Source: Herpetosiphon geysericola
GTDB taxonomy: Bacteria; Chloroflexota; Chloroflexia; Chloroflexales; Herpetosiphonaceae
Reading direction: 5' to 3'
Assembly (NCBI RefSeq): GCF_001306135.1
Contig: NZ_LGKP01000040.1
Span: forward strand, 152,726 to 216,725
Length of the DNA stretch: 64,000 bases
Shown here: positions 6,841 to 38,718 of the stretch, in pieces
Position numbering within the stretch: the first letter of the stretch is position 1
Layout: each line of letters begins with the position of its first letter
The notes under the pieces: model-generated
The model's input: the letters and a program-made list of their open reading frames with translations, nothing else
Databases searched by the model: none
What the model was told of the DNA's origin: nothing
Program-made: the position numbers and the translations under genes

Positions 6841-6879
6841 GCACGAACTGCACGCACTGCGTGCCAGAAAGGAATCAGT

Positions 6880-7731
6880 ATGGCCCTGAGTAATTTCATT
6901 CCTGTCGTCTGGAGTGCGCGGATTCTCTCAAATCTGCATCGCGCCCATGTGTATGGGCAAGCAGGCGTGGTCAATCGCGATTATGAAGGCGAGATTCGCG
7001 ATGTCGGTGATACCGTCAAGATCAATAGCATTGGCCCGGTCACGATCGGGAATTACACCAAGAATACCAATATTGGTGATCCCGAAACCTTGACCGATGC
7101 CCAAATGACTTTGCTGATCAACCAAGCCAAATACTTCAACTTCCAAGTCGACGATATCGATCGTGCGCAACAAAAGCCCAGTGTGATGGATGAAGCCATG
7201 AAGGAAGCCAGCTATGGCTTGCGCGATGTCAGCGATACCTTCATCGCCTCGCTGTATACCGGCGTGGCCGCTGGCAATGTGATTGGCAATGACACCACCC
7301 CGGTCACACCCACCAGTGCTAATGCCTATGATTATCTGGTCGATTTGGGCACGCTGCTCGATGAAGCCAATGTCCCAACCGAAGGCCGCTGGTCGATTGT
7401 CCCGCCATGGTTTCACGGCTTATTGCTTAAAGATGATCGCTTCGTCGGTGTTGGCTCGGCGAGCAGCGATCAGGTGTTGCGCAATGGCGAAATTGGCACC
7501 GCAGCGGGCTTTCGCGTGTTGAAGTCGAATAGTGTGCCCAACGTGGCCGGAGCCAAATACAAGATTATGGCCGGTCACCCGATGGCCATCTCGTTTGCCG
7601 AACAAATCGTCAAGGTCGAAGGCTATCGCCCAGAAAAGCGGTTTGCCGATGCCGTGAAGGGTTTGCATGTCTATGGGGCCAAGGTCGTGCGGCCCACTGC
7701 CTTCGCCGTCATGACCGCAAATCGCAGCTAG
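6880..7731 (+). CDS. major capsid protein
   Basis: RBS AAAGGAA. 283-aa protein immediately after the scaffold. Sequence character typical of HK97-fold coat proteins. Confidence 0.7.
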   Translation: MALSNFIPVVWSARILSNLHRAHVYGQAGVVNRDYEGEIRDVGDTVKINSIGPVTIGNYTKNTNIGDPETLTDAQMTLLINQAKYFNFQVDDIDRAQQKPSVMDEAMKEASYGLRDVSDTFIASLYTGVAAGNVIGNDTTPVTPTSANAYDYLVDLGTLLDEANVPTEGRWSIVPPWFHGLLLKDDRFVGVGSASSDQVLRNGEIGTAAGFRVLKSNSVPNVAGAKYKIMAGHPMAISFAEQIVKVEGYRPEKRFADAVKGLHVYGAKVVRPTAFAVMTANRS

Positions 7732-7764
7732 CTACGCGCACGTGCGCAGCCCAAGGGGGTTTGA

Positions 7765-7923
7765 ATGTGGGTCTTAAATACCGAAACTGGTGTGACTTGG
7801 GAAGTCGAAGGTGAACTGGCCGAGCGGCTCGCCGCCGATCCGGTCTATCGCGTCGTCGATGCGCCGATCGATCAGGCCGCTGCGGACGATGGGAAGCAGA
7901 CCAAGAAAGCTTCCACCAAATAA
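7765..7923 (+). CDS. small hypothetical protein (52 aa)
   Basis: Short ORF, not in the supplied track (<60 aa). RBS-like AAGGGGG upstream. Function unknown. Confidence 0.3.
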   Translation: MWVLNTETGVTWEVEGELAERLAADPVYRVVDAPIDQAAADDGKQTKKASTK

Positions 7924-7935
7924 GGATAGGCTGCC

Positions 7936-8523
7936 ATGCTGTATGTGAGCGTTGCTGAAGTTCAAGCCCAATTAGACGATGCACCCGCCGATCCCGACCT
8001 TATTGAACCCTACGTGGTGCGGGCCTCGGATATTGTGCGCTCGGCATTGCGGGCGTTGCTGCGTGATCCATCGTTTGAGTTTGTCCCGAATCCGGTCACC
8101 ACGATGCGCGTCGTGACCGGCCTCCCATTGCCCACCTTGACGCTCGAGGCGCATGTCATTGGCAGTATTAGCCTGATCGAGCAACGACTCCATGGGGCAT
8201 GGCAGCCACTGCCCGTTGCTGCATGGCTCGAAGATGCACGCGGCATGCTGCACGCGGAATCCGTGTGGGATGGCTACTGGGCCATCAGTTGGACCGATCA
8301 TGCACTCTATCGCATTACCGCAATCTGGGGCTATGGCGATGTTCCGCCAGCGGTGGCCGATGTGGCGCTGCAGCTAACAATTAATCTCTATCGCTCGCGC
8401 TCGACCGGCGGCATGATCGACAGCGTTGGGGTGCAGGGGCTGGGCATGACCCGCGTGGTTGCCGGCCTGACCAAGCAACAACTGGCGATTCTGGAGAGTG
8501 TGGTTGCCCCATGGCGAGCCTAA
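7936..8523 (+). CDS. head-tail connector/adaptor protein
   Basis: Size and position in the gene order after the capsid gene. Confidence 0.55.
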   Translation: MLYVSVAEVQAQLDDAPADPDLIEPYVVRASDIVRSALRALLRDPSFEFVPNPVTTMRVVTGLPLPTLTLEAHVIGSISLIEQRLHGAWQPLPVAAWLEDARGMLHAESVWDGYWAISWTDHALYRITAIWGYGDVPPAVADVALQLTINLYRSRSTGGMIDSVGVQGLGMTRVVAGLTKQQLAILESVVAPWRA

Positions 8524-18493: not shown

Positions 18494-21400
18494 ATGTCAA
18501 TTTCAACATTTTTAAAGAAGGTCGAAGAATTACTCCAGACTGGCGTTGCCACAGAACATAGCTATCGATCAGCACTAGAGGCACTTTTTCTTTCGATGAA
18601 TCATGACATCACAGTTATTAATGAAGCAAAACGCGTATCTCAGGGATCACCTGATCTTATAATCATGAGACAGAATATCTTGATTGGTCATATAGAGGCG
18701 AAGGATGTTGGAAGAAATTTACATAGATTCATAAAAGATAGCGAGCGCTTATCGCCTAAAACATCAGAAGGATTACAACTTAATAGATATCGTAATGGAT
18801 TTTCAAATTTACTTTATACAGATGGACTTTCATGGTATTGGTTTATTGATGGAAACTTACAAAATGATGAACCTATTACTATAGGAAAATGGGACGATAA
18901 GCAAAAGAAAATTACTATATTCTCAGATAAATTCACGCAACTTGAAGCTATTATAAAACATTTTCTGGAAAATACTATAGTTATTTCAAGTCCTAAGCAT
19001 TTAGCACATCGACTTGCATCAATTACTCATTGGCTAAAAGATATTATTGAAAAAGAGGTTAAATTACAAAATTCTCAAGGAGATTTACGTCAACAATTAG
19101 AAGCATTTAAAAAAACACTTTTACCAAAACTAGAGCCAGAAGAATTTGCTGATATGTATGCTCAAACCATAGCATATGGCCTTTTTGCAGCACGTGCTGC
19201 CCAGCCTGAAAATAATTCATTTACACGATTCTATGCAGCACAATCAATACCAAAAACAAATCCTTTTTTACGTTCTTTATTTCAACAAATAGCTGGATAC
19301 GATCTAGATGAATCAATTGCATGGTTAGTAGATGAGTGTGCTTCATTACTTGCACAAACCAATATGATCGAAGTAATGCATGATTTTGGAAAATCAACAC
19401 GTCAAGAAGACCCAGTAATCCATTTCTATGAAACATTTCTACAATCATATGATCCTGCCTTAAAAGAAAAACGAGGAGTTTACTATACACCTGAACCAGT
19501 TGTTAATTTCATTGTTCGGTCAGTTAATTCAATACTCCAAACAGATTTTAATCGTACTATGGGTTTAGCAGATGATAATACAATAATTCTTGATCCTGCC
19601 ACAGGTACTGCTACTTTTCTGTATAGTGCTATTCAACACATCTATCAAGAATTAGTATCTCATGGGTTGCAAGGATCATGGAATAGATATATTAGTGAAA
19701 ATCTGTTTCCTAGAATCTTTGGATTTGAACTATTGATGGCTCCTTACACCATTGCACATTTAAAGTTAGGTATTTTACTTAAAGATTTAGGATACGATTT
19801 TGAAACATCTAATAGATTAGGAGTTTATCTTACAAATACCCTTGCCGATGCACCAGATTTACAATCATCATTTGCATTTGCTAATAAGATTGCAGAAGAG
19901 GGAGAGTCTGCCAATGAAGTAAAACATATGAAAAATGTTATGGTCATTTTAGGAAATCCACCTTATTCTGGACATTCGAGTAATAAGGGGGTATGGATCA
20001 ATAATCTTCTTCACGGAAAACTTGCTGATGGAACATTAACGGAAAATTATTATCAATTTGAAGGAAAACGTCTCGCTGAACGAAATTCTAAGTGGCTTCA
20101 AGATGATTATGTTAAGTTTATTCGTTTTGGTGAATGGCGAATAAGCAAAACTGGAGAGGGTATACTTGCATACATCTGTAACAATTCCTTTCTGGATAAT
20201 CGAACATTTCGTGGTATGAGAGAAAGTTTACTCAATGATTTTGATAAAATATATATTCTTAATCTACATGGTAACAGTAAAAAACGTGAAAAAACACCAG
20301 AAAGAAAAGTTGATGAAAATGTCTTTGACATACAACAAGGCGTTGCAATAAGTATTTTTATAAAGAAAAGAAGTTCTAGTAAGAATCGTGCAACCGTATA
20401 CTATGCTGATGTTTGGGGTAAAAGTGAAGAAAAATACAATTTTCTTGATGAAACAAATTTTGATGATATCAATTGGATAGAAATAGATATGGATAAAAAT
20501 AAAAAATCATATTGGTTTATACCAAGAAACTTTAATAATCAAAAAGAATATAATTTAATGACTTCCATATTAGAAATAATGAAAAACAGTGTTGTTGGTT
20601 TTCAGACTCATAGGGATAAATTAGCAATATCATTTAGTCAATCAGAAATGAAAGAGCGAATGAAAAGATTAATGGATGTTTCCATTAATGATAGTATCTT
20701 ATTTGATGAGTTTAAATTAAGTAAAAAAAGTCCATGGAGTTTATCAGATGCAAGAATGAGAATAATAGAAAATTATGATGAAGGTGATATCATTCCTTGT
20801 TTATATAGACCATTTGATATAAGGTTTATATATTTCAATGATTATATTGTTGATCGCCCAAGAACAGAATTAAAAAAACATGTTAAAGATAAAGAAAATT
20901 TATGCTTGTTAGTAGCAAATCAAATGCAAGACGATATGGCTTATACTCATTTTTTTGTTTCAGAATTGGTTACCATAGATCGAACCTTCAGATGTTCGCG
21001 TGGTGCGGCAATAGTACTACCCCTTTATAACTATGAAAATCCCAGTAAGCCAAATGAAGTCTCAATGTTTGACAAAACTCGAAAATCTTCTTTCAAGCTT
21101 GATTACATAAATATCGTATGTCAGAAACTGAGATTAACATGGATTGATGATGGAAAAGGTGATCAAGATGCAACCCTTGGACCAGAAGATCTATTCCACT
21201 ATATTTATGCCATATTCCATAGTGCAATATACCGTGATCGTTATATCGAATTTCTGGAGACTGATTACCCTCATATTCCACTAACAACTAATAAAACTTT
21301 ATTTTTTTCTCTAATTCAGTTAGGTTCTGAATTGGTAGATTATCATCTTTTGAGACTTCCTGGTTCAGGAGGTGTTGGTGGAAATGGTGGATCAAAAAAA

Positions 21401-21727
21401 CTAGCTCGTCCAAAAAGCGAAGGATTAAGCTTTCCTATTGATGGGAATAATGAGGTTGATGTTATTAGATATAATGCATCGAATGATGAAGAATTAGGCG
21501 AGGTATGGATTAATTCAAATCAAAAATTTATTGGAATCGATCAGGAAACATGGGATATGGAAATAGCAGGATATCATCCATTAGAGAACTGGCTTAAAGA
21601 ACGAGAAAATCGTACTTTATCAATGAATGATATAGTCCATTTTATGCGAATGGTGATTTCCTTAAAAGAAACACGTCGTATTATAGATGAAATAGACGCA
21701 GCAATACCCAATTGGCCAATCGAATAA
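18494..21727 (+). CDS. Type IIG restriction-modification enzyme (MmeI-like fused endonuclease, N6-adenine methyltransferase and target-recognition domain)
   Basis: N-terminal PD-x12-EAK nuclease motif (PDLIIMRQNILIGHIEAKD). MTase motif I LDPATGTATF. YYTPEPVV. Motif IV NPPY (ILGNPPYSG). Long C-terminal TRD. Gene is about 30% GC inside about 58% GC DNA. Confidence 0.7.
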   Translation: MSISTFLKKVEELLQTGVATEHSYRSALEALFLSMNHDITVINEAKRVSQGSPDLIIMRQNILIGHIEAKDVGRNLHRFIKDSERLSPKTSEGLQLNRYRNGFSNLLYTDGLSWYWFIDGNLQNDEPITIGKWDDKQKKITIFSDKFTQLEAIIKHFLENTIVISSPKHLAHRLASITHWLKDIIEKEVKLQNSQGDLRQQLEAFKKTLLPKLEPEEFADMYAQTIAYGLFAARAAQPENNSFTRFYAAQSIPKTNPFLRSLFQQIAGYDLDESIAWLVDECASLLAQTNMIEVMHDFGKSTRQEDPVIHFYETFLQSYDPALKEKRGVYYTPEPVVNFIVRSVNSILQTDFNRTMGLADDNTIILDPATGTATFLYSAIQHIYQELVSHGLQGSWNRYISENLFPRIFGFELLMAPYTIAHLKLGILLKDLGYDFETSNRLGVYLTNTLADAPDLQSSFAFANKIAEEGESANEVKHMKNVMVILGNPPYSGHSSNKGVWINNLLHGKLADGTLTENYYQFEGKRLAERNSKWLQDDYVKFIRFGEWRISKTGEGILAYICNNSFLDNRTFRGMRESLLNDFDKIYILNLHGNSKKREKTPERKVDENVFDIQQGVAISIFIKKRSSSKNRATVYYADVWGKSEEKYNFLDETNFDDINWIEIDMDKNKKSYWFIPRNFNNQKEYNLMTSILEIMKNSVVGFQTHRDKLAISFSQSEMKERMKRLMDVSINDSILFDEFKLSKKSPWSLSDARMRIIENYDEGDIIPCLYRPFDIRFIYFNDYIVDRPRTELKKHVKDKENLCLLVANQMQDDMAYTHFFVSELVTIDRTFRCSRGAAIVLPLYNYENPSKPNEVSMFDKTRKSSFKLDYINIVCQKLRLTWIDDGKGDQDATLGPEDLFHYIYAIFHSAIYRDRYIEFLETDYPHIPLTTNKTLFFSLIQLGSELVDYHLLRLPGSGGVGGNGGSKKLARPKSEGLSFPIDGNNEVDVIRYNASNDEELGEVWINSNQKFIGIDQETWDMEIAGYHPLENWLKERENRTLSMNDIVHFMRMVISLKETRRIIDEIDAAIPNWPIE

Positions 21728-21899: not shown

Positions 21900-22838
21900 T
21901 TATGCCAAAACCTTTTCAAACCATCCTCCCCGGAAAAAACGATGCGGCTGCTGAATTCGTTGGCCTTGCTTCGTATACTGCGTTGTCCAGATCGGCGCAA
22001 GCACGCCCGATTCGCGCACGTCGTCGATGGTCGCAATGAGGAGTTGACTGCCGGGCCAGCCGATTTCCCATGCATCGAGCACAGCGCGTTTCCGCCGTTC
22101 GTTCGGCACCGTAAAAGCAATCAATGGCCAGCTATAGCGCCCTTCCCAATAGCGTGATCGATATAATTCACGATACGAGTTGGCTTTGCCAGTAATGATA
22201 CTCAGTTCCTCGGTGCCCCGATCGATTTCAATGGCATAGAGTTGATCGATCTGTCCTGGCTGTTGGCCAAGACCGAGCCATGGATACAACGATGACCGCT
22301 CACAATCGGGCAGTGTCGCATCAGCCCAGCGCCGCACCACGATAATGCCGTCGGCGCGTGGCCGCGCGGTTGGACCCAAATCCATCTCAATATAACTACT
22401 CATCCCCACAATTCCAGGAACATACGGTAGCGATTGAATCAAGCTGGTGATGACCTCGGCATATTCAATCTGGTGCTCAGCTTGATGTTGGGGATTGAAC
22501 ATCGTTGGAGCCAATCGTTCGCTCCCTTCTTCCAACAACGGAAAGGCCTGCTTGACGATTTCCCAGCCAAGCGGGGTGAGGCTATACAACCGGCCATGGC
22601 GCGTCCAGCCAATTGCACCACGCGGATCATAGCCATGCGATTGAAAGTGCTCACAGTAGGTCAGCAGCTTGGCATCAACCAGTTTGGCCAACGTGCGATT
22701 GACCGTTTGAATCGTCACGGTAAACGGATGGCCCCAGGCCGTGCGGAGGTGGCGCGAGAGCAATCGCCCGAGCCGAGCAATGAGTACAAGCACGTGCATC
22801 TCGATGGGATTCAAGCCAACGGGTGTATGGATAGTCAT
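21900..22838 (-). CDS. winged-HTH protein with replication-relaxation (Replic_Relax, PD-(D/E)xK-clan)-like C-terminal region
   Basis: N-terminal wHTH-like segment (MHVLVLIARLGRLLSRHLRTAW...VNRTLAKLVDAKLL). C-terminal YAIEIDRGTE and ADGIIVV acidic motifs. Assignment from memory of family motifs, not verified. Confidence 0.4.
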   Translation of the reverse strand: MTIHTPVGLNPIEMHVLVLIARLGRLLSRHLRTAWGHPFTVTIQTVNRTLAKLVDAKLLTYCEHFQSHGYDPRGAIGWTRHGRLYSLTPLGWEIVKQAFPLLEEGSERLAPTMFNPQHQAEHQIEYAEVITSLIQSLPYVPGIVGMSSYIEMDLGPTARPRADGIIVVRRWADATLPDCERSSLYPWLGLGQQPGQIDQLYAIEIDRGTEELSIITGKANSYRELYRSRYWEGRYSWPLIAFTVPNERRKRAVLDAWEIGWPGSQLLIATIDDVRESGVLAPIWTTQYTKQGQRIQQPHRFFRGGWFEKVLA

Positions 22839-22859
22839 TCAATCACTCCTCACGACAAA

Positions 22860-23855
22860 TTACGAAAGAACAAGCTTTTCTAAAAGTTTTTTCTTCTCAA
22901 TTATTTCTAATTGTCGCTGTTGGAGGTGTACACGAATAGCATTTTGGGTCGATGAAGCAACGAAGGCTCGATAATATACGGATACACCAAACATTATTCC
23001 ACTACCAAATAAGAAAGCAATAATACTGATGGTAAGAACGCTAGTTACTCCAACTGGTGATTGCTCTACAATACTGAAAAAAGAGAATATTTTATCGCCT
23101 GCGGCAAGAACACCAGCACCCATGGAAACAAGAATGCCCACAAGCGCAGCAACCGTCATTATTAGGCTAATGATGCTCACACTATGCATACGAGTTTCTC
23201 TTCGCTGAATGAGGAGATCTAAGGTTTGTTCCAACTGTATTGTCTCTATCGGATTCAATATTTCATTTAATTCGTCCTGCAAAAAAGTATAAATTTTTTC
23301 AACTGAATAATTATTTTTATTACTATTCATTTCAGCAATAGTAACAAAAATAAAATCCATACTTGTTATAAAGTATATACATATACTAATAAGTAATGAG
23401 ACTATAAAACTTGATATTTCTATAAATATCAAACTAAATATTATAGGATTCATATTTTGAATGTTTATCAAAGAAAAACTGATAGACATTATGTAGAATA
23501 AATATAACTCTATAAGAAGAAATGATTTTATTGCTAATGATCTTTTTATAAAAGAGAAAATATGGTCTCTATAGTGTATAGGCTTGAATACCTTAAAGAA
23601 AGCTATTCCTATAGACACAAAGAAAAAGGTACCCACAAGTATATCTATATTAAAATTCTTGAAAATAGCTACAAATGAGGTTTGACGTGCTATTGAAAAT
23701 GCCGAGAGTATCATTGCAATTACAAAAATCAAGGTATATATAATAATGAAATTACGCCCCTGACGAATTCCTCCTTTCCAGTCCTCATACATTTTTGAAA
23801 TACCTTTTTCTACTTCGTTTTGAAACTGAATACAGAGTTCAAGATTTGTCGCCAT
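22860..23855 (-). CDS. polytopic membrane protein (about 7 TM), AT-rich moron of unknown function
   Basis: Seven strongly hydrophobic 20-25-aa segments with a about 50-aa soluble loop in the middle. About 30% GC. No catalytic motif. Confidence 0.6.
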   Translation of the reverse strand: MATNLELCIQFQNEVEKGISKMYEDWKGGIRQGRNFIIIYTLIFVIAMILSAFSIARQTSFVAIFKNFNIDILVGTFFFVSIGIAFFKVFKPIHYRDHIFSFIKRSLAIKSFLLIELYLFYIMSISFSLINIQNMNPIIFSLIFIEISSFIVSLLISICIYFITSMDFIFVTIAEMNSNKNNYSVEKIYTFLQDELNEILNPIETIQLEQTLDLLIQRRETRMHSVSIISLIMTVAALVGILVSMGAGVLAAGDKIFSFFSIVEQSPVGVTSVLTISIIAFLFGSGIMFGVSVYYRAFVASSTQNAIRVHLQQRQLEIIEKKKLLEKLVLS

Positions 23856-24166
23856 AACGTCCTGCCCTTCATAAAACTATAGCGATCATACGCATGCGCT
23901 AATACATCGTTACACGCTTAATAGGTCTATCCTCTATTCAAAGCATCAAAGGTAGCTGCGCAGCCTGTTAAAGAATGTCGGCACGACCAAATAGCCAGTT
24001 TAGGCCATTCTAGTGGGCTATTTTCTACGTGGCGGTTTGTAGACCATCTGAACGCGATATGAATACGGTTTGAACACGATATGAATGGGCAAGAATGCCG
24101 CAAACATGCCGATCACTAAATGGCCGTGGCAGCGATATTAAGCAAGCCACGGCCTCGAATACTCGA

Positions 24167-24706
24167 TTAAAGTCCACTGAGCCAGTATTCATCGGTTCGC
24201 ACTGGTTCAGGTGGAACAGGACGCTGCCAGTCAGCTAACCGCCTAGCAAGAACACCATCACCCTCACCCATATATTCCCACCACGACGGCGCTCTAGGGG
24301 TGGAAAAGGCATGAATAAACACGGGGATGTGCGGTAAAACGAGCGCTGGCGGAACGGCCATGAGCGCAACCGTCCACAACTGGTGGGATTGTCCGTTAGC
24401 ATCGACGACCGTTTCCGCAAGCAAGGTTTCGAGCGGCGTACTTTGGGGCACACGCAGATACAAACCAAGAAACGGGCAGACCAGCACACTACACAGTGCG
24501 CCGCACAGATAACGCGGTGGTTGCTGGACACGAATCAGAGCAGCATCCAGTTGCTGAAAAAGCGTCATCGTGGCGTGTTGGAGCAAGGGTGCAAGGTCGT
24601 GGGGCTGCATGCTGGGTGGCGACAGCGTAATTTGCACAGTATGCTGGCCGTTATTGGGCAAAGCCAACGTTTCGGTCAAGGTAATGGTCATGGGTATCGT
24701 GGTCAT
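24167..24706 (-). CDS. hypothetical protein
   Basis: GC-rich ORF downstream of and overlapping the FtsK-like gene. Start is uncertain (24706 or 24742). Confidence 0.4.
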   Translation of the reverse strand: MTTIPMTITLTETLALPNNGQHTVQITLSPPSMQPHDLAPLLQHATMTLFQQLDAALIRVQQPPRYLCGALCSVLVCPFLGLYLRVPQSTPLETLLAETVVDANGQSHQLWTVALMAVPPALVLPHIPVFIHAFSTPRAPSWWEYMGEGDGVLARRLADWQRPVPPEPVRTDEYWLSGL

Positions 24707-24725
24707 GAGCGAGATTCCTTTCTGC

Positions 24726-25835
24726 TTAAGCACCGAGATCAAGCACCTGCTTGACCTGGCGAATTTGAGTTAAACGGCGCGTGCGTTTGCCACCCAAGCT
24801 GTCAATAATTTCGTTGCCACTTTTGCCTGCAAGAACGAGCTTGGTAATCAGGATGACATCGGTCAGCATGGCCTCGTCAACCAGGTTCTCATCGCTAGTT
24901 CCCATGGTTCCAAGCGGGGAATCACCGGCTATATCGCCCATGGAATCGGGAACTTGCCAGAGGCGGCGCGGGTCAATCGGGCGAGTGGACAACATCCACG
25001 CGGGTTCACGATCGCACCAAAACCATTGACAATTCCATTCAATCGCTGCGGGCCACGGAGCGAGCAACGGCGACTTCATTTTCTCCAACGCTCGATCGCC
25101 AATGGCAATCCACAGCAGGTTATCGAGCGCTTCGCTATCGCCTTCAATGCCCAGCGGTTTGACCAAGGTGGTTTGGGTTACCAGAATCAGATGCATCCGA
25201 TACTTAGCTGCTTGGCGCAGCATTTCGCCCACAAAGCGTTGGGCCACCGGCACTTTGGGTTTCGCTGCCGAGCCATCTTCACCATGCACCTTGCTCATCA
25301 CATCGGGCGCTTCTTCCAACACCACCGTGATGGGGTCAAACGTTTCGACACCCGTGGCCGCAGCGGCCTTGCGTCGCCCCAGTTCGGCGAGCAGTGCTTT
25401 CATCACGCGATTGATCGCAGGATAGTCATAGACTTGCGGCAAACCACCATAGTCATTGGGTCGCGCATGGGAATTGAGAATCACCAGCTGGTGGCCCTCC
25501 AGGGCGCGTAAATAGGTCAACGCCATGCTCAGCACCGACTTACCTTGCCGCGAAGGGCCAGCAATCCCGATATGCGGACGCTTGGCCAAGGTGTCGAGCA
25601 ACATGGGCCACGAATAGGTTGGCAAGTGTGCAACATCGGGTTCAACTGGTTCATCAACCACCGGTCGCGCCACGACCACTGTCCGCGCCGCAGCCGCAGA
25701 ACGCGGGGCAGCGGGGGCAGCGGCAGGGCGGCGTTCGCTGGCCGGTGTGCGCGCGTGCCACCAGAGAAACGTCCCAACAAAACTACACGCAAAGAGAAAA
25801 ATCAGCGGATATAGCCAAGGCGAATTAATATCCAT
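24726..25835 (-). CDS. FtsK/SpoIIIE-family DNA translocase (TraB/Tra-like of conjugative elements)
   Basis: N-terminal TM helix. Walker A GIAGPSRQGKS. Walker B VVLEEAPD. FtsK signature RMHLILVTQ. RBS AGGAG before the ATG. Confidence 0.7.
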   Translation of the reverse strand: MDINSPWLYPLIFLFACSFVGTFLWWHARTPASERRPAAAPAAPRSAAAARTVVVARPVVDEPVEPDVAHLPTYSWPMLLDTLAKRPHIGIAGPSRQGKSVLSMALTYLRALEGHQLVILNSHARPNDYGGLPQVYDYPAINRVMKALLAELGRRKAAAATGVETFDPITVVLEEAPDVMSKVHGEDGSAAKPKVPVAQRFVGEMLRQAAKYRMHLILVTQTTLVKPLGIEGDSEALDNLLWIAIGDRALEKMKSPLLAPWPAAIEWNCQWFWCDREPAWMLSTRPIDPRRLWQVPDSMGDIAGDSPLGTMGTSDENLVDEAMLTDVILITKLVLAGKSGNEIIDSLGGKRTRRLTQIRQVKQVLDLGA

Positions 25836-26274
25836 GGGGATGCTCCTGTGGAGTGCGGCCAAAGGCCAAATATTCTGGCCACCGCGCCGAGACAATACCA
25901 AGGATGAGACCGGCTCCCCATGCCAGGGCAATGGCTGGCATGCCAGATGTCAGTTTGTAGGCGATGGGATAAAACAACCATTCGCACCACTTGTAGGCCG
26001 TAATCATGGCATCGGGAGCGAGGAAACACCCATAGCCCCACGCGGTTCGGCGCAAGGTATAGAGTTGGCCAAGGAAAAGAAAGAGCGCCAGCCCAAGACC
26101 CGCGAGGATGCCACGATAATCGCGAATACCCCAGAGCCAGTGTTGAAAGTCACTCAGCGTCGAGACCGTGGTGACAATGCTATTGCCCCAGCCCAACGTG
26201 CAGGCGATTCCTTTGACCAATTTGCGACTCGGTTCAAGGCGGCGAAGATCAAATAACACATTCGATGTGGTCAT
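25825..26274 (-). CDS. small membrane protein (Spd-like spread protein candidate)
   Basis: 149 aa with 3-4 TM segments. Overlaps the start of the FtsK-like gene by 11 nt, so operon partner. Confidence 0.45.
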   Translation of the reverse strand: MTTSNVLFDLRRLEPSRKLVKGIACTLGWGNSIVTTVSTLSDFQHWLWGIRDYRGILAGLGLALFLFLGQLYTLRRTAWGYGCFLAPDAMITAYKWCEWLFYPIAYKLTSGMPAIALAWGAGLILGIVSARWPEYLAFGRTPQEHPHGY

Positions 26275-26386: not shown

Positions 26387-26780
26387 CTAGACATCTTGAT
26401 ACTCGGGATCAGGCGGCAAATCGAGCGAATCGGGCAGCGGAACCGGAGTTTGTTCAACTGGTGGTGTACCACGGTTCAACCCATGGTCAACAACGGGTGC
26501 ACTGCGGTTCAACCCATGGTCAACACTAGGGGAACGACTGTGCAACGCGTGTTCAACAGGTTTCATCAGGACTGCGAGTAAGGTGTCCCGCACGACGTGA
26601 TCATCAAGCCGCGCAACGCTGGCCAACGCATCGGCAGTGAACAACTGGATGTCTTTGCCACAGGTATGCAGACCGATAATCACGAGGGCGCGGAGCACGG
26701 CAGACTCGTTGCCTAGGCTGGCAATCATCGCACTGAGCACGCTCGAGCTGCGGGTCGTCAGTCGTTCATCAAAACTCATT
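26387..26780 (-). CDS. hypothetical protein downstream of parM (possible partition adaptor)
   Basis: 131-aa ORF whose start overlaps the parM stop (ATGA-type coupling). Contains a protein-level repeat VDHGLNR x2 encoded by DNA direct repeats. Confidence 0.35.
26472..26525. repeat. two 21-bp direct repeats CGGTTCAACCCATGGTCAACA, plus a third GTTCAAC-containing copy at 26551-26557
   Basis: Exact copies at 26472-26492 and 26505-26525. Confidence 0.6.
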
Positions 26781-27765
26781 GGCCAAACTCCTCGTAGCGC
26801 CGCGCACGGCGGGCATAACCACGCGCGATCGCGGTTTGCGGATTGGGGGCAACGATCGTTTGGCGAAAACGCTGTTGAATCGCCTGAACCAGCATGGGCA
26901 TTTCCGCACCACCCCCAGCCACGATAATCGCCGCCAGCTTCGCACCGCTGCCCCACGCCCGAACTAGCGCATCGGCGACTTGGTGGCCATTGGCCAACCA
27001 TGGCCGATCCCAGCCGGTTGGCAGATCGCATTCCTCACCCGCGACCTCCACATAGCCAGCACGCACCGCGCGATCGACTTCGTGTAAGGTCAGATCAAGG
27101 TTGTAACGCCCACTAATTTTGGTTTGCAGCTGCTGGAGTGGATTGGCGCTTCCGAGTTCAAAGCTAATCGCACTTTCCGGCACAACATTCATCGCTTGCA
27201 CAATGCAGGCATCGACGGTGTTATGGCCCAAGTCAATCACGCCAACGCGACTCAGCTCATAGCCGCTGCGGGCAATGGCTCCGCTCGGGTCGAGCAAGAC
27301 CCCATACAACGCGCCGAGCGGTTCACTAATCACCCGAATACCGGTTTTGAGCGTCGTCCCGTGGTAATACTGGGTCACAACCGCATCCCGCAGCCGCGAC
27401 CCCAAGGCCACCGCTAAGTCGCGTTCGCCGGACCAGGCGGCGGGCAGTCCGGTAACACATGCACCACCGCAGGGCTGCTTGAGGCGCTGTAAGGCTCCTT
27501 TGACGAGCGCAGGGATAATGTGGCGATCGTAGAGTCGTTGTTGCGAGCGGAGCGAGATCGGTGCGGGATGCAGCAAGGCATCCTCGCCCGTCCACCACAG
27601 CGTGCCGTGGACTTCAACCGTGGGCACATCGTGCAGATTGCCATCGGTGCTACTGGCCGGAGCCACCAGCGCAGGAAAGATAATGGTTTCTTCGTGATCG
27701 CCGGTATTGATCGTATATTTCACATAGCCATGGCCAATATTGGCCCCATGGGCAATAGCAGTCAT
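26776..27765 (-). CDS. parM: ParM/StbA-family actin-like segregation ATPase
   Basis: 329 aa. Actin-fold phosphate-binding motifs IDLGHNTVD and IIVAGGGAE. RBS GAGGAG before the ATG at 27765. Confidence 0.7.
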   Translation of the reverse strand: MTAIAHGANIGHGYVKYTINTGDHEETIIFPALVAPASSTDGNLHDVPTVEVHGTLWWTGEDALLHPAPISLRSQQRLYDRHIIPALVKGALQRLKQPCGGACVTGLPAAWSGERDLAVALGSRLRDAVVTQYYHGTTLKTGIRVISEPLGALYGVLLDPSGAIARSGYELSRVGVIDLGHNTVDACIVQAMNVVPESAISFELGSANPLQQLQTKISGRYNLDLTLHEVDRAVRAGYVEVAGEECDLPTGWDRPWLANGHQVADALVRAWGSGAKLAAIIVAGGGAEMPMLVQAIQQRFRQTIVAPNPQTAIARGYARRARRYEEFGQ

Positions 27766-27841
27766 AGAACACTCCTCTACGATGGATGGGCGTTGAATCC
27801 CATCCATCAAGAACACATCAGTGAATCGACCCGACGCAGCC

Positions 27842-28981
27842 TTAAGCAACCGATTGGATGGCACTGGTGGTGAGATCATGCGTCCACCAGTGATCAAGGT
27901 GCGTCGCAATCCACGACCGCAAATCCACGCCACACTGCACGGCCATCGTGCCAAAGTCGTGGGGATCGGGCCGCATGCGGGCAACCTCTTTGCCTTTGAA
28001 AATATCGAGCCAATACGCAGCGGCTTTATCACCGGCTGCATCGGCATCGGTTGCAATGAAGAGTGGCTGGCAGAGGCTGTACTGAACGAGCCAGCGAAAG
28101 CCACGACCTTGGGTGGTTCCAATCGCTGCCACCCCGCTGAGCGGCTGGCCATGGCGTTCAAATTGGCCAAGGGCTTGTTGGGCCACCAACGCATCGATGG
28201 GGCCTTCCACCAGAATGCCAGGGCGACCAGCGTGGAAGGTATCGATGCCATACGGCACATTGCTGCTTCCAGCAATCGTCACGTATTTCATACCCTCATC
28301 GCGGGGCGTGGTTTGGCGAATCGAGAGCTTCCAGAGCTGGCCATCACAAAACCATGGGATGACATAGCCAGCGGGCAACCACACGCCATCTTTATCGGGA
28401 TCAGTCAATCCCCACTTGTGCAGTGGACGGTAGAGCGGCTTGGGGTTATAGCCAATTGCAGCGGTGCGAAGCGTGTGATCGGTCAGGCCACGCTGGTGTA
28501 AGTAGCTGCGTGGCGAGGACTGACTATCCCCATCCTTCCACAACATATCAACCGAGTAGCCAAGGAAACTCAGAGCGGCCTGCTGCCACGTCGCTGAGGG
28601 CGGCTCACAGGCATTCGGTGGCTCAGGATCAGGGACTGCTGCTGTAAGCGAAGTCGATTGGGTCAGCGTCAGCCCCAGTGTTGTAAAGACCCCTTTGATC
28701 AAGTTCTTCCAATCAGGATGATCCTTGGTAGGAATGCTGCCGTGGTCGCGCAGGAAAACAAAATCAACATCAGAGGCCCATGGCTGGCCATCGCGACAAC
28801 TGCGACACCACCAGCGGCCACCATTGCTATCCCCATGTGGTTGCACCCGAAAGCGATCCTTGCCACCACAGAGCGGACAGGCTCCAGCCCATTCACCGCC
28901 ATTGGTCGCGGCCACTTTGCGCAGGGCGGTGCGCTGGCCAACCAACGAAAGAAACGCATCGCCCGAAAGATGTTCAATCAT
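27842..28981 (-). CDS. DNA primase (CHC2 zinc finger plus Toprim, DnaG-like)
   Basis: CPLCGG...RFRV...WWCRSC zinc ribbon. Toprim ILVEGPIDAL and IATDADAAGD. RBS GGAGG. Confidence 0.8.
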   Translation of the reverse strand: MIEHLSGDAFLSLVGQRTALRKVAATNGGEWAGACPLCGGKDRFRVQPHGDSNGGRWWCRSCRDGQPWASDVDFVFLRDHGSIPTKDHPDWKNLIKGVFTTLGLTLTQSTSLTAAVPDPEPPNACEPPSATWQQAALSFLGYSVDMLWKDGDSQSSPRSYLHQRGLTDHTLRTAAIGYNPKPLYRPLHKWGLTDPDKDGVWLPAGYVIPWFCDGQLWKLSIRQTTPRDEGMKYVTIAGSSNVPYGIDTFHAGRPGILVEGPIDALVAQQALGQFERHGQPLSGVAAIGTTQGRGFRWLVQYSLCQPLFIATDADAAGDKAAAYWLDIFKGKEVARMRPDPHDFGTMAVQCGVDLRSWIATHLDHWWTHDLTTSAIQSVA

Positions 28982-31675: not shown

Positions 31676-32539
31676 TTATAAGCATGACTCCACCTTCTCG
31701 AGGAGGTTCACGCCTTGCCGATTTTGGGTCGCCTCATGGGATGAGAGTTGTGCATAGTGCAGAGACATTTGAATCGTTTCATGGCCCATCAATACCCGTA
31801 GACTTTCTGCATCAAGGCCTTTCTTGATCAGTTCGCGGGCGAAGGTGGCACGAAAGGAGTGAATCAAACGCCGCACATCATTGCGGATTTCCGCGTCGGA
31901 GGCTAAGCGATCGAAGCTCTGGTGTACGCCGCTAATCGTCAGCGTTTTTTGCTGGCGATGGCTGACAAACAACGCAGGGTTCGTATCCGTCCGACTGGCG
32001 ATGTAGGTTCGAAGGACTTCTTGGGTCACGGATGAAATCCAGATATATCGATCCTTGCTGCCTTTGCCAAGAATCATGGCGCAGCCTTCCGAGTCAAAGC
32101 TGGTCCGACGGAGTTGAATCAGTTCACTGACCCGAACGCCGGTATCCAGTAAGACACAGAGCATGGCTTTTTCACGAAGCTCGGCAACCAGCAGGAGGCG
32201 CTTAATTTGATCCATCGTGTAATGGGCAGGTAAGCGCTTGGGTAATCGGGGTTTGAGTTTATCGGTATTTACTGGCTGAATATAGCCTTCTTCAGCAAGC
32301 CAGCGCACGAGGATGAGTGCATCGTTGAGATAGCTATAGTGGCTGGCAATGCTTAAGTTTTGTTGGGCTAAGTACGCACTGTAGGCCCGCAATAACGCCC
32401 GACTGAGCACCTGATTCGGTTGCTCAAGCACCCAAGCGCCAAAGCGTCCTAACCGAATTCGGTAGGTGGTGATGGTTGCAGGGCTGCGGCGTTCGGCGAC
32501 TTTTGCGGACAAATATTCTTCAATCCATTGGCTAATCAT
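31676..32539 (-). CDS. int: tyrosine recombinase/integrase (XerC/D-like)
   Basis: Catalytic residues R (LLDTGVRVSEL), K, HxxR (HSFRATF), H..Y (LMGHETIQMSLHY). Lies 0.9 kb from the att duplicate. Confidence 0.85.
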   Translation of the reverse strand: MISQWIEEYLSAKVAERRSPATITTYRIRLGRFGAWVLEQPNQVLSRALLRAYSAYLAQQNLSIASHYSYLNDALILVRWLAEEGYIQPVNTDKLKPRLPKRLPAHYTMDQIKRLLLVAELREKAMLCVLLDTGVRVSELIQLRRTSFDSEGCAMILGKGSKDRYIWISSVTQEVLRTYIASRTDTNPALFVSHRQQKTLTISGVHQSFDRLASDAEIRNDVRRLIHSFRATFARELIKKGLDAESLRVLMGHETIQMSLHYAQLSSHEATQNRQGVNLLEKVESCL

Positions 32540-33460
32540 ACGAAATGACCTCGATCTATCGCGTTATCCCCGAAGGGATAGCGTGTGCGTTCGCAAATAC
32601 TCGACTCGAGGCCGCGCGGAGCGGAAAGAGTATGTGATGGGATACCTCTGCAGGTGGTGCTAAAGGGGTATCTCATTACAGGTCTTCAGACACACTGCGT
32701 TAAGGGGTGCTTGCACAACCAGCAATGGCGGTCGCCATTTTTTGGGTATAGCAAAGCAACCTACACGTTTGGTATTGGCAAATGGCTTTGGCTAGGTTGA
32801 TCTTCCAGAATTGGAAGCAACACAAAGCCAACCGTCATTCACCAATCGGTGTGAGGAAGACAGGAAACACACTGAGTCAAGGTCATTGGTATAACACTCA
32901 TCCATCGTAACCTTGCTTTGTGTCGATGGAGAGTGATGATCGTCAATCTCCGAACGATCATCTTTATGTATTAGGAAATGCCGGAGCGCGTTAATGGTTG
33001 AAGGCCGCAAGCGGCGTTCAGGAATAGGGAAGTCGGTGGGCAGGATTCCCAAGACGACATATGGTAAGCTTCGTGGATTCAATGATCCTGAATGCCCATG
33101 AAGCGTGGTAGATAAGCAGCGTGTCTTTGCATCAGTCCTGCTTATCTAACAAGTGGCGTGTCTAGCATCAACCACTTGTATTGGGTTTCTAGCAACGAGT
33201 GCATGCCAGATCCAAGGGAAGGCTATTGCTTTAATAAAGCACCCGATAACAATAGCCATGTTGGAAAGCTCGATGTGTCGAGTCAAGTTCGGGGTTAGCG
33301 TACCATATGCCAACCATGCAGAACGTTAACGCTGTATAAGAAAATGCTTTTGTAGTGACAGTGCATTGCAGCAATGTGGTGTTGCTGGCGAGCAGAAGCC
33401 AATAATCCTCCTTCAAAGCAGCCTGGTGAAACAGGGTGCTTGCTTTGCATTTTAGGCAAA

Positions 33461-33506
33461 CCTGTTAATCAATGGGTCCTAGGTTCGAGTCCTAGTCAGG
33501 GAGCCA
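33461..33506 (+). other. 46-nt duplicate of tRNA-Asn 3' half (anticodon loop to CCA), candidate attR core
   Basis: CTGTTAATCA...GTCCTAGGTTCGAGTCCTAGTCAGGGAGCCA is identical over 31 nt (and nearly over 46) to the 3' half of the tRNA gene 21 bp downstream. No 5' half is present. Confidence 0.6.
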
Positions 33507-33527
33507 CTTCTTTTTACAACTTGATAT

Positions 33528-33603
33528 TCCCTGATAGCTCAGTTGGTAGAGCGGTTGACTGTTAATCAGCATGTCCTAGGTTCGAGTCCTAGTCAGGGAG
33601 CCA
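33528..33603 (+). tRNA. tRNA-Asn (GTT)
   Basis: Cloverleaf with anticodon loop CTGTTAA. Close to the E. coli tRNA-Asn sequence. CCA encoded. Confidence 0.85.
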
Positions 33604-36387: not shown

Positions 36388-38169
36388 ATGTATCAAATTG
36401 AAACCTTATATTTGCCAGATTCAATCAAAAGCAGTTATCAAAATGTCGAAAGTCAGCCACTTACTCAACTCGATAGCCTTTCAAGGGTTAATATTTTAGT
36501 TGGCGAAAATAATGCAGGTAAAAGTCGGTTTATGCGGTTATTGGCCGAAGAGTCTAATTTTAAACTAAAACATACTAAAATTAATGAATTCAACTACAAA
36601 ATTGAACAAGAAATTAATAGATTAATTGATATATTTGATATTCATGAAGTTGATAGAATTGAGGCAATAACAAGGATTAATATAGAGAATTGTATTCATT
36701 ATCTGAAGGAAATAAATAGTATTTATACAAATCCGAAATATACAACATACAATAATATTTTTAATATTATTGAGACCATAAAAAACGATAATAGAATATC
36801 TTCTATTGCAAATATAATTATAAATCTACTTAATCAAGTACAGATTAAGTTTAATAAAAATATATATATACCTACTCTTCGTAGTTTACGCCCTTTAGAT
36901 AGTGAATATACGGATTTTTATCAAAATCAAACTATTGAGAGTTATTTTAAATCCGCAATTCATAAACCAGAAATTTATACAGGTTTAGGGATATATGCCA
37001 AACTAAGAATTTATCTACTTGGGGATAATGTAAAACGTAAAAAAATCAGAGAATATCAAGAATTTATTTCACATACTTTATTCGAAGACAAAGAAGTAAC
37101 TTTGATTCCGAGAGATGAAGAAAAACATATTTTTGTAAAAATTGGTAATGAAAAAGAACGACCAATTTATGATCTTGGTGATGGAATTCAATCAGCAATC
37201 ATTTTAACCTTTTTGCCATTTGTGAGCCTTGAAAATTGTATTTTCTTTATCGAAGAGCCAGAGCTTTTTCTACACCCAAGTATGCAGCGCAAAATTCTGG
37301 AGTTCTATCACTCGTTGGATCGTCATTTATTTTTTATGACAACTCACTCGAATCACTTGCTTGATATTACGATTGATATTCCTGAGATTTCAATCTATAA
37401 CTTTCGAAAATCACTTACTAGTAGTGATGATGATGAAACACCTCATTTCATTGTTGAAAATGTTGATAACAATCAAACTAGTTCATTAGAATTATTGGGA
37501 GTACGAAATTCATCAGTCTTATTAGTCAATGCCACAATCTGGGTTGAAGGAATAACCGACCGTTGGTATTTACGTGAGATGCTCCAAATGTATATGGAGA
37601 GTCAAAAAGATTTGAAACAGTTTGTTGAAGATATGCATTATATGTTTGTTGAGTATGGCGGTGGAAATATTACTCATTTCTCATTTGTAGATATGGAAGA
37701 TAAACTTATTACAATAGAACGACTATGTGCGAAAGCCTTTGTTATCATTGACCAAGATGGCGATGCTAAATTAAAACGTAAAGAAGAGCTTAAAGCTAAA
37801 CTTGGCGATACTTTACTTATTTTACCTTGTCGGGAAATTGAAAATAGCCTACCATCCGAGGTCATTCGCTCAGTTGTAATTGAATATGAGACATCTATAC
37901 AAAACCCAAACCCCGAAACAAATTCTTTTGTGTATGAGGATTACCAAAATGAATCGTTAGGGGAATTTATCGAAGATCATGTTATAAAAGGTGAGAAACA
38001 TCGTCGAGGTTCTTATAAAGCTGATTCAGGAACTATTACCGATAAACTTGGTTTTTGTACAAAAGCCTTAGCATATTTGAAAAATCTTACATTCGATCAA
38101 CTACCTTCTACAATTCAAAAAGAAATAGAGGGCATATATAAGTTTATTGCAAAGCTGAATCCTAGCTAA
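36388..38169 (+). CDS. OLD-family nuclease (N-terminal ABC-type ATPase plus C-terminal Toprim), standalone
   Basis: Walker A GENNAGKS. ABC signature/Walker B region IEEPELFLHP. H-loop TTHSNH. Toprim WVEGITDRW ... FVIIDQDGD. About 30% GC. Confidence 0.7.
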   Translation: MYQIETLYLPDSIKSSYQNVESQPLTQLDSLSRVNILVGENNAGKSRFMRLLAEESNFKLKHTKINEFNYKIEQEINRLIDIFDIHEVDRIEAITRINIENCIHYLKEINSIYTNPKYTTYNNIFNIIETIKNDNRISSIANIIINLLNQVQIKFNKNIYIPTLRSLRPLDSEYTDFYQNQTIESYFKSAIHKPEIYTGLGIYAKLRIYLLGDNVKRKKIREYQEFISHTLFEDKEVTLIPRDEEKHIFVKIGNEKERPIYDLGDGIQSAIILTFLPFVSLENCIFFIEEPELFLHPSMQRKILEFYHSLDRHLFFMTTHSNHLLDITIDIPEISIYNFRKSLTSSDDDETPHFIVENVDNNQTSSLELLGVRNSSVLLVNATIWVEGITDRWYLREMLQMYMESQKDLKQFVEDMHYMFVEYGGGNITHFSFVDMEDKLITIERLCAKAFVIIDQDGDAKLKRKEELKAKLGDTLLILPCREIENSLPSEVIRSVVIEYETSIQNPNPETNSFVYEDYQNESLGEFIEDHVIKGEKHRRGSYKADSGTITDKLGFCTKALAYLKNLTFDQLPSTIQKEIEGIYKFIAKLNPS

Positions 38170-38181
38170 AGGTCTCACACT

Positions 38182-38718
38182 ATGCAGCAACCTACGTGGC
38201 AGATTAATACTTATCAACAAAGATGGCATGTGCGTTGGCACCCAGCCGATAGCGAGCCAGCAGGCAAAGCTCATGGCTCAGCTGGTATTTGCCTCACGCC
38301 TGAACGCCACATTGTAGTGGTGAGCCAAAATGGGCGTGATTGGGATGTACCAGCTGGCCGCAGCGAGGCGGGCGAATCGTGGGCAGCAACCTTGCAGCGT
38401 GAGGTGGCCGAAGAAGCATGTGCGATAGTTCAAAGTGCCAGCTTATTGGGCTTTTGCCAAAGCCAATGTTTGGACGGGGCAGAACAAGGGCTAATCTTAG
38501 TGCGCGCATTTTGGTTGGCCCACGTTACAATCCAAGCATGGCAGCCTCAATTCGAAATGATCGAACGCCGGATTATTGCTCCAAGCCAAATTTGGAGCTA
38601 CCTACCGCAGGCCTATCTACCAATCTATCGCCATGTATTGCAACTCGCCGCAGAATTCAGCTCGGCAACACAACAATCGCGAAGCTTATTTTCTAGCCCC
38701 GAAGCCCACAAAGGATAG
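38182..38718 (+). CDS. NUDIX hydrolase
   Basis: Nudix box GRSEAGESWAATLQREVAEEAC. Host-like GC. Confidence 0.7.
   Translation: MQQPTWQINTYQQRWHVRWHPADSEPAGKAHGSAGICLTPERHIVVVSQNGRDWDVPAGRSEAGESWAATLQREVAEEACAIVQSASLLGFCQSQCLDGAEQGLILVRAFWLAHVTIQAWQPQFEMIERRIIAPSQIWSYLPQAYLPIYRHVLQLAAEFSSATQQSRSLFSSPEAHKG

Follow-up and report, generated by a model that had tools for sequence, protein, structure and literature searches.

A portable Replic_Relax module with an optional, fast-evolving membrane gene in Herpetosiphon prophages

The DNA analyzed here, referred to throughout as the window, is a 64,000 bp segment of the Herpetosiphon geysericola genome (contig NZ_LGKP01000040.1, positions 152,726 to 216,725). 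Gene content and order show that a tailed prophage is integrated here in H. geysericola and that the locus of interest lies at the far end of its early/replication arm. The locus comprises two adjacent genes, one for a predicted membrane protein and one for a member of the Replic_Relax family (hereafter RR). A preliminary description of this DNA had placed the two open reading frames (ORFs) on the same strand with the membrane gene directly upstream of RR, and both are confirmed at their coordinates on the minus strand; the spacing is as close as had been proposed, although its exact length is 21 nt (22839-22859) rather than 22 nt. The following features are present, all on the minus strand.

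21900..22838, minus strand: RR gene, 312 aa; Replic_Relax (PF13814, MOBC of CONJscan); winged helix of MarR type at the N-terminus, putative PD-(D/E)xK-type domain at the C-terminus
22839..22859, minus strand: 21-nt spacer holding the RR ribosome-binding site GAGGAG, as read from the sequence
22860..23855, minus strand: membrane gene from the ORF list, coding for an orphan 331-aa polytopic protein; AT-rich, about six transmembrane (TM) segments
22854..23950, minus strand: presence/absence cassette of 1,097 bp, spanning 95 nt of leader, the membrane gene and the start of the spacer
23951..23996, minus strand: conserved core GGCTATTTGGTCGTGCCGACATTCTTTAACAGGCTGCGCAGCTACC, 46 bp, a candidate nick region and/or RR promoter-operator; holds the palindrome GGCTGCGCAGC
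24042..24085, minus strand: four 11 bp direct repeats TTCATATCGTG, TTCAAACCGTA, TTCATATCGCG and TTCAGATGGTC, a candidate binding site for the RR winged helix
24106..24125, minus strand: a further conserved box, GGCCATTTAGTGATCGGCAT, repeating part of the core start in direct orientation, on the far side of the 11-bp repeats
24122..24154, minus strand: GC-rich inverted repeat GGCCGTGGC / GCCACGGCC, perfect over 9 bp with a 15-nt loop, from a repeat search and DNA folding

RR matches the PF13814 profile with 36.3 bits (cut-off 25.3) over residues 20-234, and an N-terminal winged helix-turn-helix is present, matched below threshold by MarR_2. The winged helix and the acidic motifs ADGIIVV and YAIEIDRGTE, which had been picked out earlier, are thus all there, and PF13814 recurs in all RR homologues (8/8). 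This family is termed MOBC by CONJscan (PMC5357655), and MOBC relaxases consist of a winged helix-turn-helix and a restriction-endonuclease-like domain (PMC12857230, a T4SS review of 2025). RR is a winged-helix protein with a putative PD-(D/E)xK-type domain and a new member of a known family, the relaxase/replication family Replic_Relax, and it has a weak PHROG match annotated as 'replication initiation by nicking'. The suggestion that RR is a defence nuclease does not stand beside this assignment to PF13814, and searches of both proteins against PADLOC 2.0 at E values up to 0.1 returned 0 matches. Homologues of RR are confined to Herpetosiphon-like sequences and fall into two groups, one at ~90% identity (phage-type) and one at ~55% that is linked to type IV secretion system (T4SS) genes. 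RR has no match among 50,697 phage records and no relatives with solved structures.

The DNA upstream of RR has a constant layout in these loci, in which a GCCATTTGGT box is followed by three to five direct repeats at 11-bp spacing and then, ~45 bp further on, by the 46-bp core. Tandem Repeats Finder (TRF) describes the window repeats as having a period of 11 and 2.9 copies, at 24055-24086; analogous 11-bp arrays of other sequences are present in L004 (5.0 copies), L005 and the H. aurantiacus plasmid pHAU01, with those of the window, L004 and L005 confirmed by TRF. In alignments of the window, L004, L005, L006 and pHAU01 the GCCATTTGGT box is found again ahead of the repeats. The sequence of the repeat varies between elements and the core is conserved, being ~90% identical between phage-type and T4SS-linked loci, whereas the RR gene has only ~70% nucleotide identity there. 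A scan of 185,579 species genomes with the core pattern found it in Herpetosiphon only, in each case a short way ahead of RR, or of the membrane gene and RR together, and the architecture of repeats and core is kept across 13 loci by sequence comparison, with binding and nicking at these sites being putative.

Other signals in this region are fewer. The inverted repeat at 24122..24154 sits just past the stop codon of the upstream ORF (24167-24742) and is a possible terminator dividing the RR unit from the upstream operon; a strict terminator scan did not call it, a T-run being absent. Within the cassette region the scan found no terminator-like site, and six promoter-like sites where 8.0 were expected in shuffled sequences. 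Two further candidates were rejected: a stem-loop at the core palindrome, for which there is no covariation between loci, and a structured RNA in the leader, which has no Rfam match and a fold z-score of -0.8.

The RR loci themselves are of two types. Those on phage-like backbones are divided by whether or not they carry the membrane gene.

Phage-type RR loci with the membrane gene: the window, L001, L007 and L009 (L009 is identical to IMG/VR record L015)
Phage-type RR loci without the membrane gene: L002, L008, L010 and L014 (four distinct loci)

L013 is a re-capture of L002, and L003 is a Logan contig of the same H. giganteus-type locus, and neither is counted separately. The T4SS-type loci lie beside VirB4-like (DUF87) and NlpC/P60 genes, on contigs that resemble integrative and conjugative elements and on pHAU01. 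When the window is set beside the H. giganteus prophage, the DNA they have in common is RR and ~140 bp upstream only; outside it the phages are unrelated. At ~90% identity, RR and the core recur in H. giganteus and in other prophages that have nothing further in common with that of the window. RR and its upstream DNA are common to unrelated backbones, and RR, the 11-bp repeat array and the 46-bp core therefore make up a portable module of ~1.2 kb. The module is found in three unrelated prophage backbones, with a diverged form on T4SS-bearing elements including pHAU01. In H. aurantiacus DSM 785, a single strain, two prophages, one with and one without the membrane gene, occur together with the T4SS plasmid pHAU01, and all three carry the core, with differing repeats.

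The plasmid itself (CP000876.1; locus L016 is its 153-162 kb stretch) is 340 kb in length and non-mobilisable according to its PLSDB typing. Encoded on it nonetheless are VirB4-like and NlpC/P60 proteins as well as a PF13814 protein that has repeat and core DNA upstream, a gene set that suggests an unrecognised conjugation system in the Chloroflexota.

Comparison of the phage-type loci suggests that the membrane gene is an insertion into this arrangement. All four full alleles (4/4) occupy one position, with the core on one side and the RR ribosome-binding site on the other, directly upstream of RR, and the gene is absent from the four distinct phage-type loci listed above and from all T4SS-linked RR loci. 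The closest relative of the window, L010 of H. llansteffanensis, has neighboring proteins that are 89-99% identical (most of them 95-99%) and lacks the membrane gene; in a blastn alignment the two match at 92.6% nucleotide identity as far as 23951, the match resumes at 22853, and the 1,097-bp cassette in between is represented in L010 by 9 bp. L010 nevertheless keeps ACCAATTATCGTGTGAGGAG, the spacer sequence that normally lies 3' of the membrane gene, as it does in L007, and its retention points to a secondary deletion of the gene. At L002, L008 and L014 the junction reads ACC-TTTTTATGCT-GAGGAGG, which corresponds to both outer flanks of the cassette. The membrane gene is an optional gene limited to one phage lineage. 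Since the T4SS-type outgroup is without it, the parsimonious scenario is a single insertion, a later split into strongly diverged alleles and at least one loss. The preliminary description had treated the two genes as one defence or entry-exclusion module and proposed to check whether the pair is conserved across genomes. Linkage holds, all full alleles lying upstream of RR in four loci, although an obligate pair does not, as RR is often encoded with no membrane gene beside it.

In loci that have the membrane gene its transcription must, by the arrangement of sites, be shared with RR. The spacer has no room for a promoter or a terminator; its GAGGAG lies 7 nt ahead of the RR ATG, and the sequence GTGAGGAGTGATTGAATG is common to the window spacer, L001, L007, L009 and the gene-less L010. 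In gene-less loci the end of the core is ~10 nt ahead of the RR ribosome-binding site, so near that RR would have to be transcribed from within or upstream of the core. With the core as the starting point for RR, and a spacer of 21 nt, the membrane gene would necessarily be co-transcribed with RR.

Such an arrangement could mean that the two products act together, with the membrane protein as a tether or adaptor that holds the nicked DNA-RR complex at the cytoplasmic membrane. Loose parallels would be CloDF13, where the membrane-associated MobB works with the MOBC relaxase MobC, and phage phi29, whose membrane proteins organise replication. The invariable position of the alleles upstream of RR, the forced co-transcription, and the conserved helices predicted to lie on the cytoplasmic side (residues 184-224 and C-terminal), which could form a docking surface, all agree with a tether. 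RR is, however, ~90% identical and under strong purifying selection with or without the membrane gene, the closest relative has lost that gene, T4SS-linked RR loci never carry it, and its product has neither an NTPase motif nor a family match; we thus regard a tether as unlikely.

The membrane gene and RR also differ in composition and in rate. The membrane gene has a GC content of 0.313 and a GC content at third codon positions (GC3) of 0.27, against 0.546 and 0.59 for RR and a GC3 of 0.57-0.63 for flanking genes, and the GC3 contrast indicates that its low GC is compositional and does not merely follow from hydrophobic amino acids. All full alleles are below the GC of their backbones, at 0.31-0.41, with GC3 values of 0.27 and 0.31 in the two that were measured. 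Between the window and the H. aurantiacus prophage L009 the membrane protein is 30% identical, whereas seven flanking proteins are 77-94% identical. Substitution rates are as follows.

Membrane gene: dN 0.34-0.73; dS at least 1.5 or saturated; dN/dS 0.17-0.40
RR: dN ~0.05; dS ~1.0; dN/dS 0.05
Backbone genes: dS 0.55-0.75; dN/dS 0.06-0.19

The dN of the membrane protein is thus 6-13 times that of RR. Its fastest part is the TM1-TM4 bundle, with a pN of 0.37 compared with 0.12-0.26 elsewhere. From these rates the membrane alleles predate the divergence of the backbones that carry them, making the gene an old, fast-evolving resident. The GC contrast noted in the preliminary description therefore stands (0.31 against 0.55), but the recent capture that had been read from it does not: recent capture from an AT-rich donor is contradicted by allele identities of 28-52%, by saturated dS at one fixed site on backbones with dS of 0.55-0.75, and by the low GC of every allele. 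No AT-rich donor lineage for the gene was found in any database searched.

A family this divergent and this AT-rich could in principle be no gene at all, simply a chance open frame in AT-rich spacer DNA, and the lack of any homologue outside one genus, of a domain match and of a confident AF2 model (pLDDT 43) would fit such an origin. Four alleles nonetheless keep the frame, a length of 329-337 aa, the start context and invariant blocks although synonymous sites are saturated, with dN/dS of 0.17-0.40, and it is on these grounds that we consider the ORF to be a genuine gene under constraint; the probability of a chance frame is close to negligible.

The same contrast in rates bears on whether the two genes form one abortive-infection or defence system, in which RR would be a DNA-sensing nuclease and the membrane protein its effector. 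Their operon linkage in four loci, their position next to a defence cargo zone (a type IIG enzyme here and weak PDC-M32-like ORFs in H. aurantiacus) and an architecture of nuclease fold plus membrane protein that resembles some abortive-infection pairs speak for it. We find it very improbable, given that the two genes differ roughly tenfold in rate, that RR belongs to PF13814 and has its own dedicated and conserved cis site, that RR stands alone in most loci including T4SS elements, and that neither protein has a PADLOC match.

The membrane protein is without a recognisable domain, as had been supposed, with 0 matches in Pfam, NCBIfam, PHROG and PADLOC. It is 100% identical to a hypothetical protein of H. 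geysericola, and among ~15 billion proteins its family consists of four full alleles and one fragment; the alleles other than that of the window are listed below.

P0002, in L001: 52% identity to the window protein
P0011, in L007: 30% identity to the window protein
H. aurantiacus allele, in L009: 28-30% identity

Relatives were sought by word-indexed searches, queried both by one sequence and by a profile of four alleles, and by an exhaustive HMMER search of 1.84 billion representatives. Scans of JGI metagenomes gave nothing, and the sole membrane-protein match in IMG/VR was the H. aurantiacus prophage, which is not new. A sequence profile search of the PDB gave no credible match, and a profile search over all ORFs of every fetched locus found no paralogue. 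Pfam and PHROG scans of all four alleles at E values up to 10 revealed no family common to two of them, and no NTPase motif is present. An AF2 prediction from two sequences (pLDDT 43) is unusable for fold assignment. On these comparisons the protein represents a new orphan family, unassigned in function and familiar in its evolutionary role.

Its polytopic nature is confirmed, although the count of seven TM segments given earlier is not: Kyte-Doolittle hydropathy yields six, and seven only if the 41-residue hydrophobic stretch at 134-174 is a hairpin. Hydropathy and the positive-inside rule favour an N-in/C-in orientation. Four parts are predicted to lie on the positive, cytoplasmic side: the N-terminal end, a loop at 92-106, 46 central residues and the last 36 residues. 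Six hydrophobic segments and the positive-inside pattern together predict a location in the cytoplasmic membrane. The conserved parts correspond to predicted cytoplasmic helices, namely residues 184-224, with LELLHQRRESR, and the C-terminal YYxAFxSSSTQ...LQxRQxE.

A protein of this kind could be some other lysogenic-conversion factor, such as a small pore- or toxin-like abortive effector working alone, an immunity protein against a membrane-targeting toxin or a modifier of a host membrane complex. Being polytopic with helical cytoplasmic segments is compatible with these roles, as is the concentration of allelic diversity in the TM1-TM4 bundle. Immunity proteins to pore-forming colicins show such diversity within the membrane, where they recognise their partner. 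L010 in addition has other, unrelated AT-rich membrane ORFs beside RR. Set against this, no toxin or partner gene travels with the membrane gene, and there is no homology to such families; we consider a role of this sort somewhat unlikely, while giving it real weight.

The explanation that best accounts for the locus overall, and to which we would give about an even chance, is that RR and its cis site are an independent module and that the membrane gene is an optional addition to it, probably a DNA-exclusion determinant. In such a system the winged helix of RR would bind the 11-bp repeats, and RR would nick in or near the core, leading to strand transfer or to rolling-circle-type replication. 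The core would also provide a promoter, so that the membrane gene would be transcribed whenever RR is. The membrane protein would not be a working partner of RR; located in the inner membrane and expressed in the lysogen, it would block the entry of DNA from related phages or conjugative elements, with the variable TM1-TM4 bundle setting specificity and the conserved cytoplasmic helices acting as a common scaffold. We infer that exclusion of incoming DNA is the most likely role of the protein, and rank it first because of the predicted membrane location, the allelic diversity within conserved flanks, the presence/absence polymorphism, and a likely autoregulated promoter giving low, constitutive expression. 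Two traits of exclusion-type genes are found here: the gene is dispensable, and its alleles diverge strongly between flanks that are conserved. The gene is likewise similar to a phage moron in being an insertion missing from a close relative (the 1,097-bp indel) and in its deviant composition (GC3 0.27), and is dissimilar in that it has no promoter and terminator of its own and lies within the RR leader. It is best described, from these comparisons, as a long-resident, hypervariable and dispensable accessory gene in the RR leader.

Several observations weigh against this explanation. In PLSDB the only match to RR is the Herpetosiphon plasmid, and no plasmid relaxase outside the genus is related to it at the level of BLAST; no T4SS genes were found within the window prophage, and since the prophage has none of its own RR could be a replication initiator instead of a relaxase. 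The core palindrome is neither strictly conserved nor covarying across loci, and reading the core as a promoter depends on a weak TTAACA and a T-rich -10 that the consensus scan did not call. For the membrane protein, searches with four alleles by PHROG or Pfam at E values up to 10 detect no homology to described superinfection-exclusion (Sie) or entry-exclusion (Eex) families, and the window protein has no match among PHROGs that include known Sie families. The predicted external loops are of just 1-8 residues, so that the protein could contact an entry machinery only within the membrane.

A further scenario extends the portable module to gene transfer. The prophage core is nearly identical to that of a T4SS plasmid in the same cell, as with pHAU01 in H. 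aurantiacus DSM 785, which makes conjugative mobilisation of prophage DNA conceivable. Tailed prophages of Herpetosiphon might then carry a portable origin of transfer and MOBC-relaxase module by which the prophage or adjacent chromosomal DNA is mobilised by conjugation. The hypervariable membrane protein, encoded between this origin and the relaxase gene, would determine specificity or exclusion in such transfer; we view this scenario as speculative and improbable.

In the wider prophage, an amidase, an SPP1-type portal, capsid and tail genes are on the plus strand as far as 17950. The minus-strand early arm comprises a tyrosine integrase (31676-32539), a DUF3987 protein, a Toprim primase, a ParM-like protein and several ORFs of unknown function, and is closed at its far end by the membrane gene and RR. 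Past the integrase are tRNA-Lys and tRNA-Asn (33420-33603) and host genes such as those for EamA and SecA. The tRNA-Lys(ttt) call (33420-33506, plus strand) is unusually long, at 87 nt, and adjoins the integrase end of the prophage; it may include an attachment-site junction.

Downstream of RR there is AT-rich, variable DNA in every phage-type locus examined, whereas T4SS-type loci are 55-70% GC at this position. The proposal that RR borders a slot for mobile-element cargo is therefore upheld, and the cargo differs between loci.

Window: type IIG enzyme, 18494-21727, plus strand; PADLOC REase_MTase_IIG, 1.7e-250
H. aurantiacus (L015 8135-9988): adjacent ORFs of 240 and 148 aa with weak matches to PDC-M32A (1.4e-4) and PDC-M32B (1.5e-4), respectively
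H. llansteffanensis (L010): two membrane ORFs of 228 and 209 aa, 18-26% GC, directly downstream of RR
L014: a cytosine-methyltransferase-like fragment (motif found by eye) and another membrane-anchored ORF

The type IIG enzyme is a restriction-modification fusion of 1077 aa (GC 0.325) that lies between RR and the tail genes, the two genes converging. A PD...ExK-like motif, SPDLII...IEAKD, was recognised by eye in its N-terminal part, and the enzyme also has an N6 methylase and a Type_ISP_C specificity domain. In L010 (reverse-complemented; 6121-7391 and 7616-8000) the two AT-rich membrane ORFs are followed by a second, diverged RR-like sequence (48% identity, residues 171-301). These membrane ORFs were considered as homologues of the window membrane protein and rejected, with an hhalign probability below 1%.

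Two genes upstream of the RR module is a 401-aa ORF (24726-25931, minus strand) with an N-terminal TM segment and, by eye, a Walker A motif GPSRQGKS, a Walker B-like VVLEEAPD and an FtsK/HerA-like RMHLILVTQT. It has no Pfam match and a weak PADLOC match to mad8 (2e-6), and could be a membrane-anchored, DNA-translocase-like ATPase. The 882-aa protein encoded ahead of RR in T4SS loci was considered as a homologue of this P-loop ORF and rejected, there being no similarity and no Pfam match. Further along the arm, the ParM/ALP-type actin-like partition protein (26776-28275, minus strand) matches Pfam ALP_N and MreB-like_C and PHROG 691, 'partition protein' (1.5e-24). The 499-aa ORF overlaps the primase gene, and a 338-aa form as in H. 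aurantiacus, starting near 27792, is likelier; a ParM-like gene inside an integrated prophage suggests phage-plasmid ancestry.

Two other loci deserve mention. In the H. giganteus prophage (L002, 6615-9693) an operon of Prok-E2_D, Prok-JAB, ThiF and DUF3102 genes lies directly upstream of the RR module; its ThiF matches PADLOC E1-E2 models at 9e-9, and the operon is a ubiquitin-like conjugation cassette borne on a prophage. Outside the window prophage and past the tRNAs (36388-38718, plus strand), a 593-aa OLD/AriA/GajA-like ATPase is followed by a 178-aa ORF. The ATPase matches PADLOC AriA (2e-19), AriAB (5e-17) and Old (1e-15) as well as Pfam AAA_21 and AAA_15, and the locus is probably a PARIS- or Gabija-like defence system.

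For annotation, these comparisons split what had appeared to be a single module into a DNA-processing unit that passes between phages and T4SS elements of the Chloroflexota and an orphan membrane gene borne in its leader. Within one genus there is a clean natural experiment, made up of four deeply divergent alleles, sites that are ancestrally empty and, in the closest relative, an exact deletion. If the shared core is functional, it would give a concrete example, from a little-studied phylum, of phages and conjugative elements engaging in cross-talk. None of this is new in kind, and the system is unusually well suited to experiments.

Each component has counterparts among known systems. A PF13814 protein in a temperate tailed phage is also reported, in the titles and abstracts consulted, for Bacillus temperate phages and phage-plasmids; those titles and abstracts mention neither a cis site nor an inserted membrane gene, and the 50,697 phage records contain no sequence match. 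As in CloDF13 MobB-MobC, a MOBC-type protein is encoded right after a membrane-associated protein in one operon, but MobB is a large, coupling-protein-like NTPase required for relaxation, whereas the membrane protein here is optional, hypervariable and lacks an NTPase motif. Membrane proteins known to act in exclusion include HK97 gp15, P22 SieA and lactococcal Sie2009 among prophages, and F TraS, SXT Eex and ICEBs1 YddJ among conjugative elements. The membrane gene differs from these in showing no homology to them, in the larger size of its product (331 aa, ~6 TM segments) and in being embedded in the RR leader without its own promoter or terminator; in common with morons and Sie and Eex genes it is accessory, present or absent between close relatives and compositionally distinct, and has a membrane product with divergent alleles in conserved flanks.

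TraX of pAD1 offers a close parallel to the RR module: its binding site is a set of five direct repeats located 70-120 bp away from nic (Francia et al. 2013, in the summary given by PMC12857230). RR differs from TraX in that it has no pairwise similarity to plasmid relaxases outside Herpetosiphon, the link being through the Pfam profile only, and in that the window copy is in a tailed prophage without T4SS genes and its nick site is putative. TraX has a winged helix with a restriction-endonuclease-like domain, and direct repeats set apart from a conserved nick region; RR has a winged helix with a putative domain of that type, and four to five 11-bp repeats ~45 bp upstream of the core, the candidate nick region. 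Francia and Clewell (2002) reportedly found that related elements have the nick-side region in common but carry different repeats, and the same pattern is seen in the Herpetosiphon loci.

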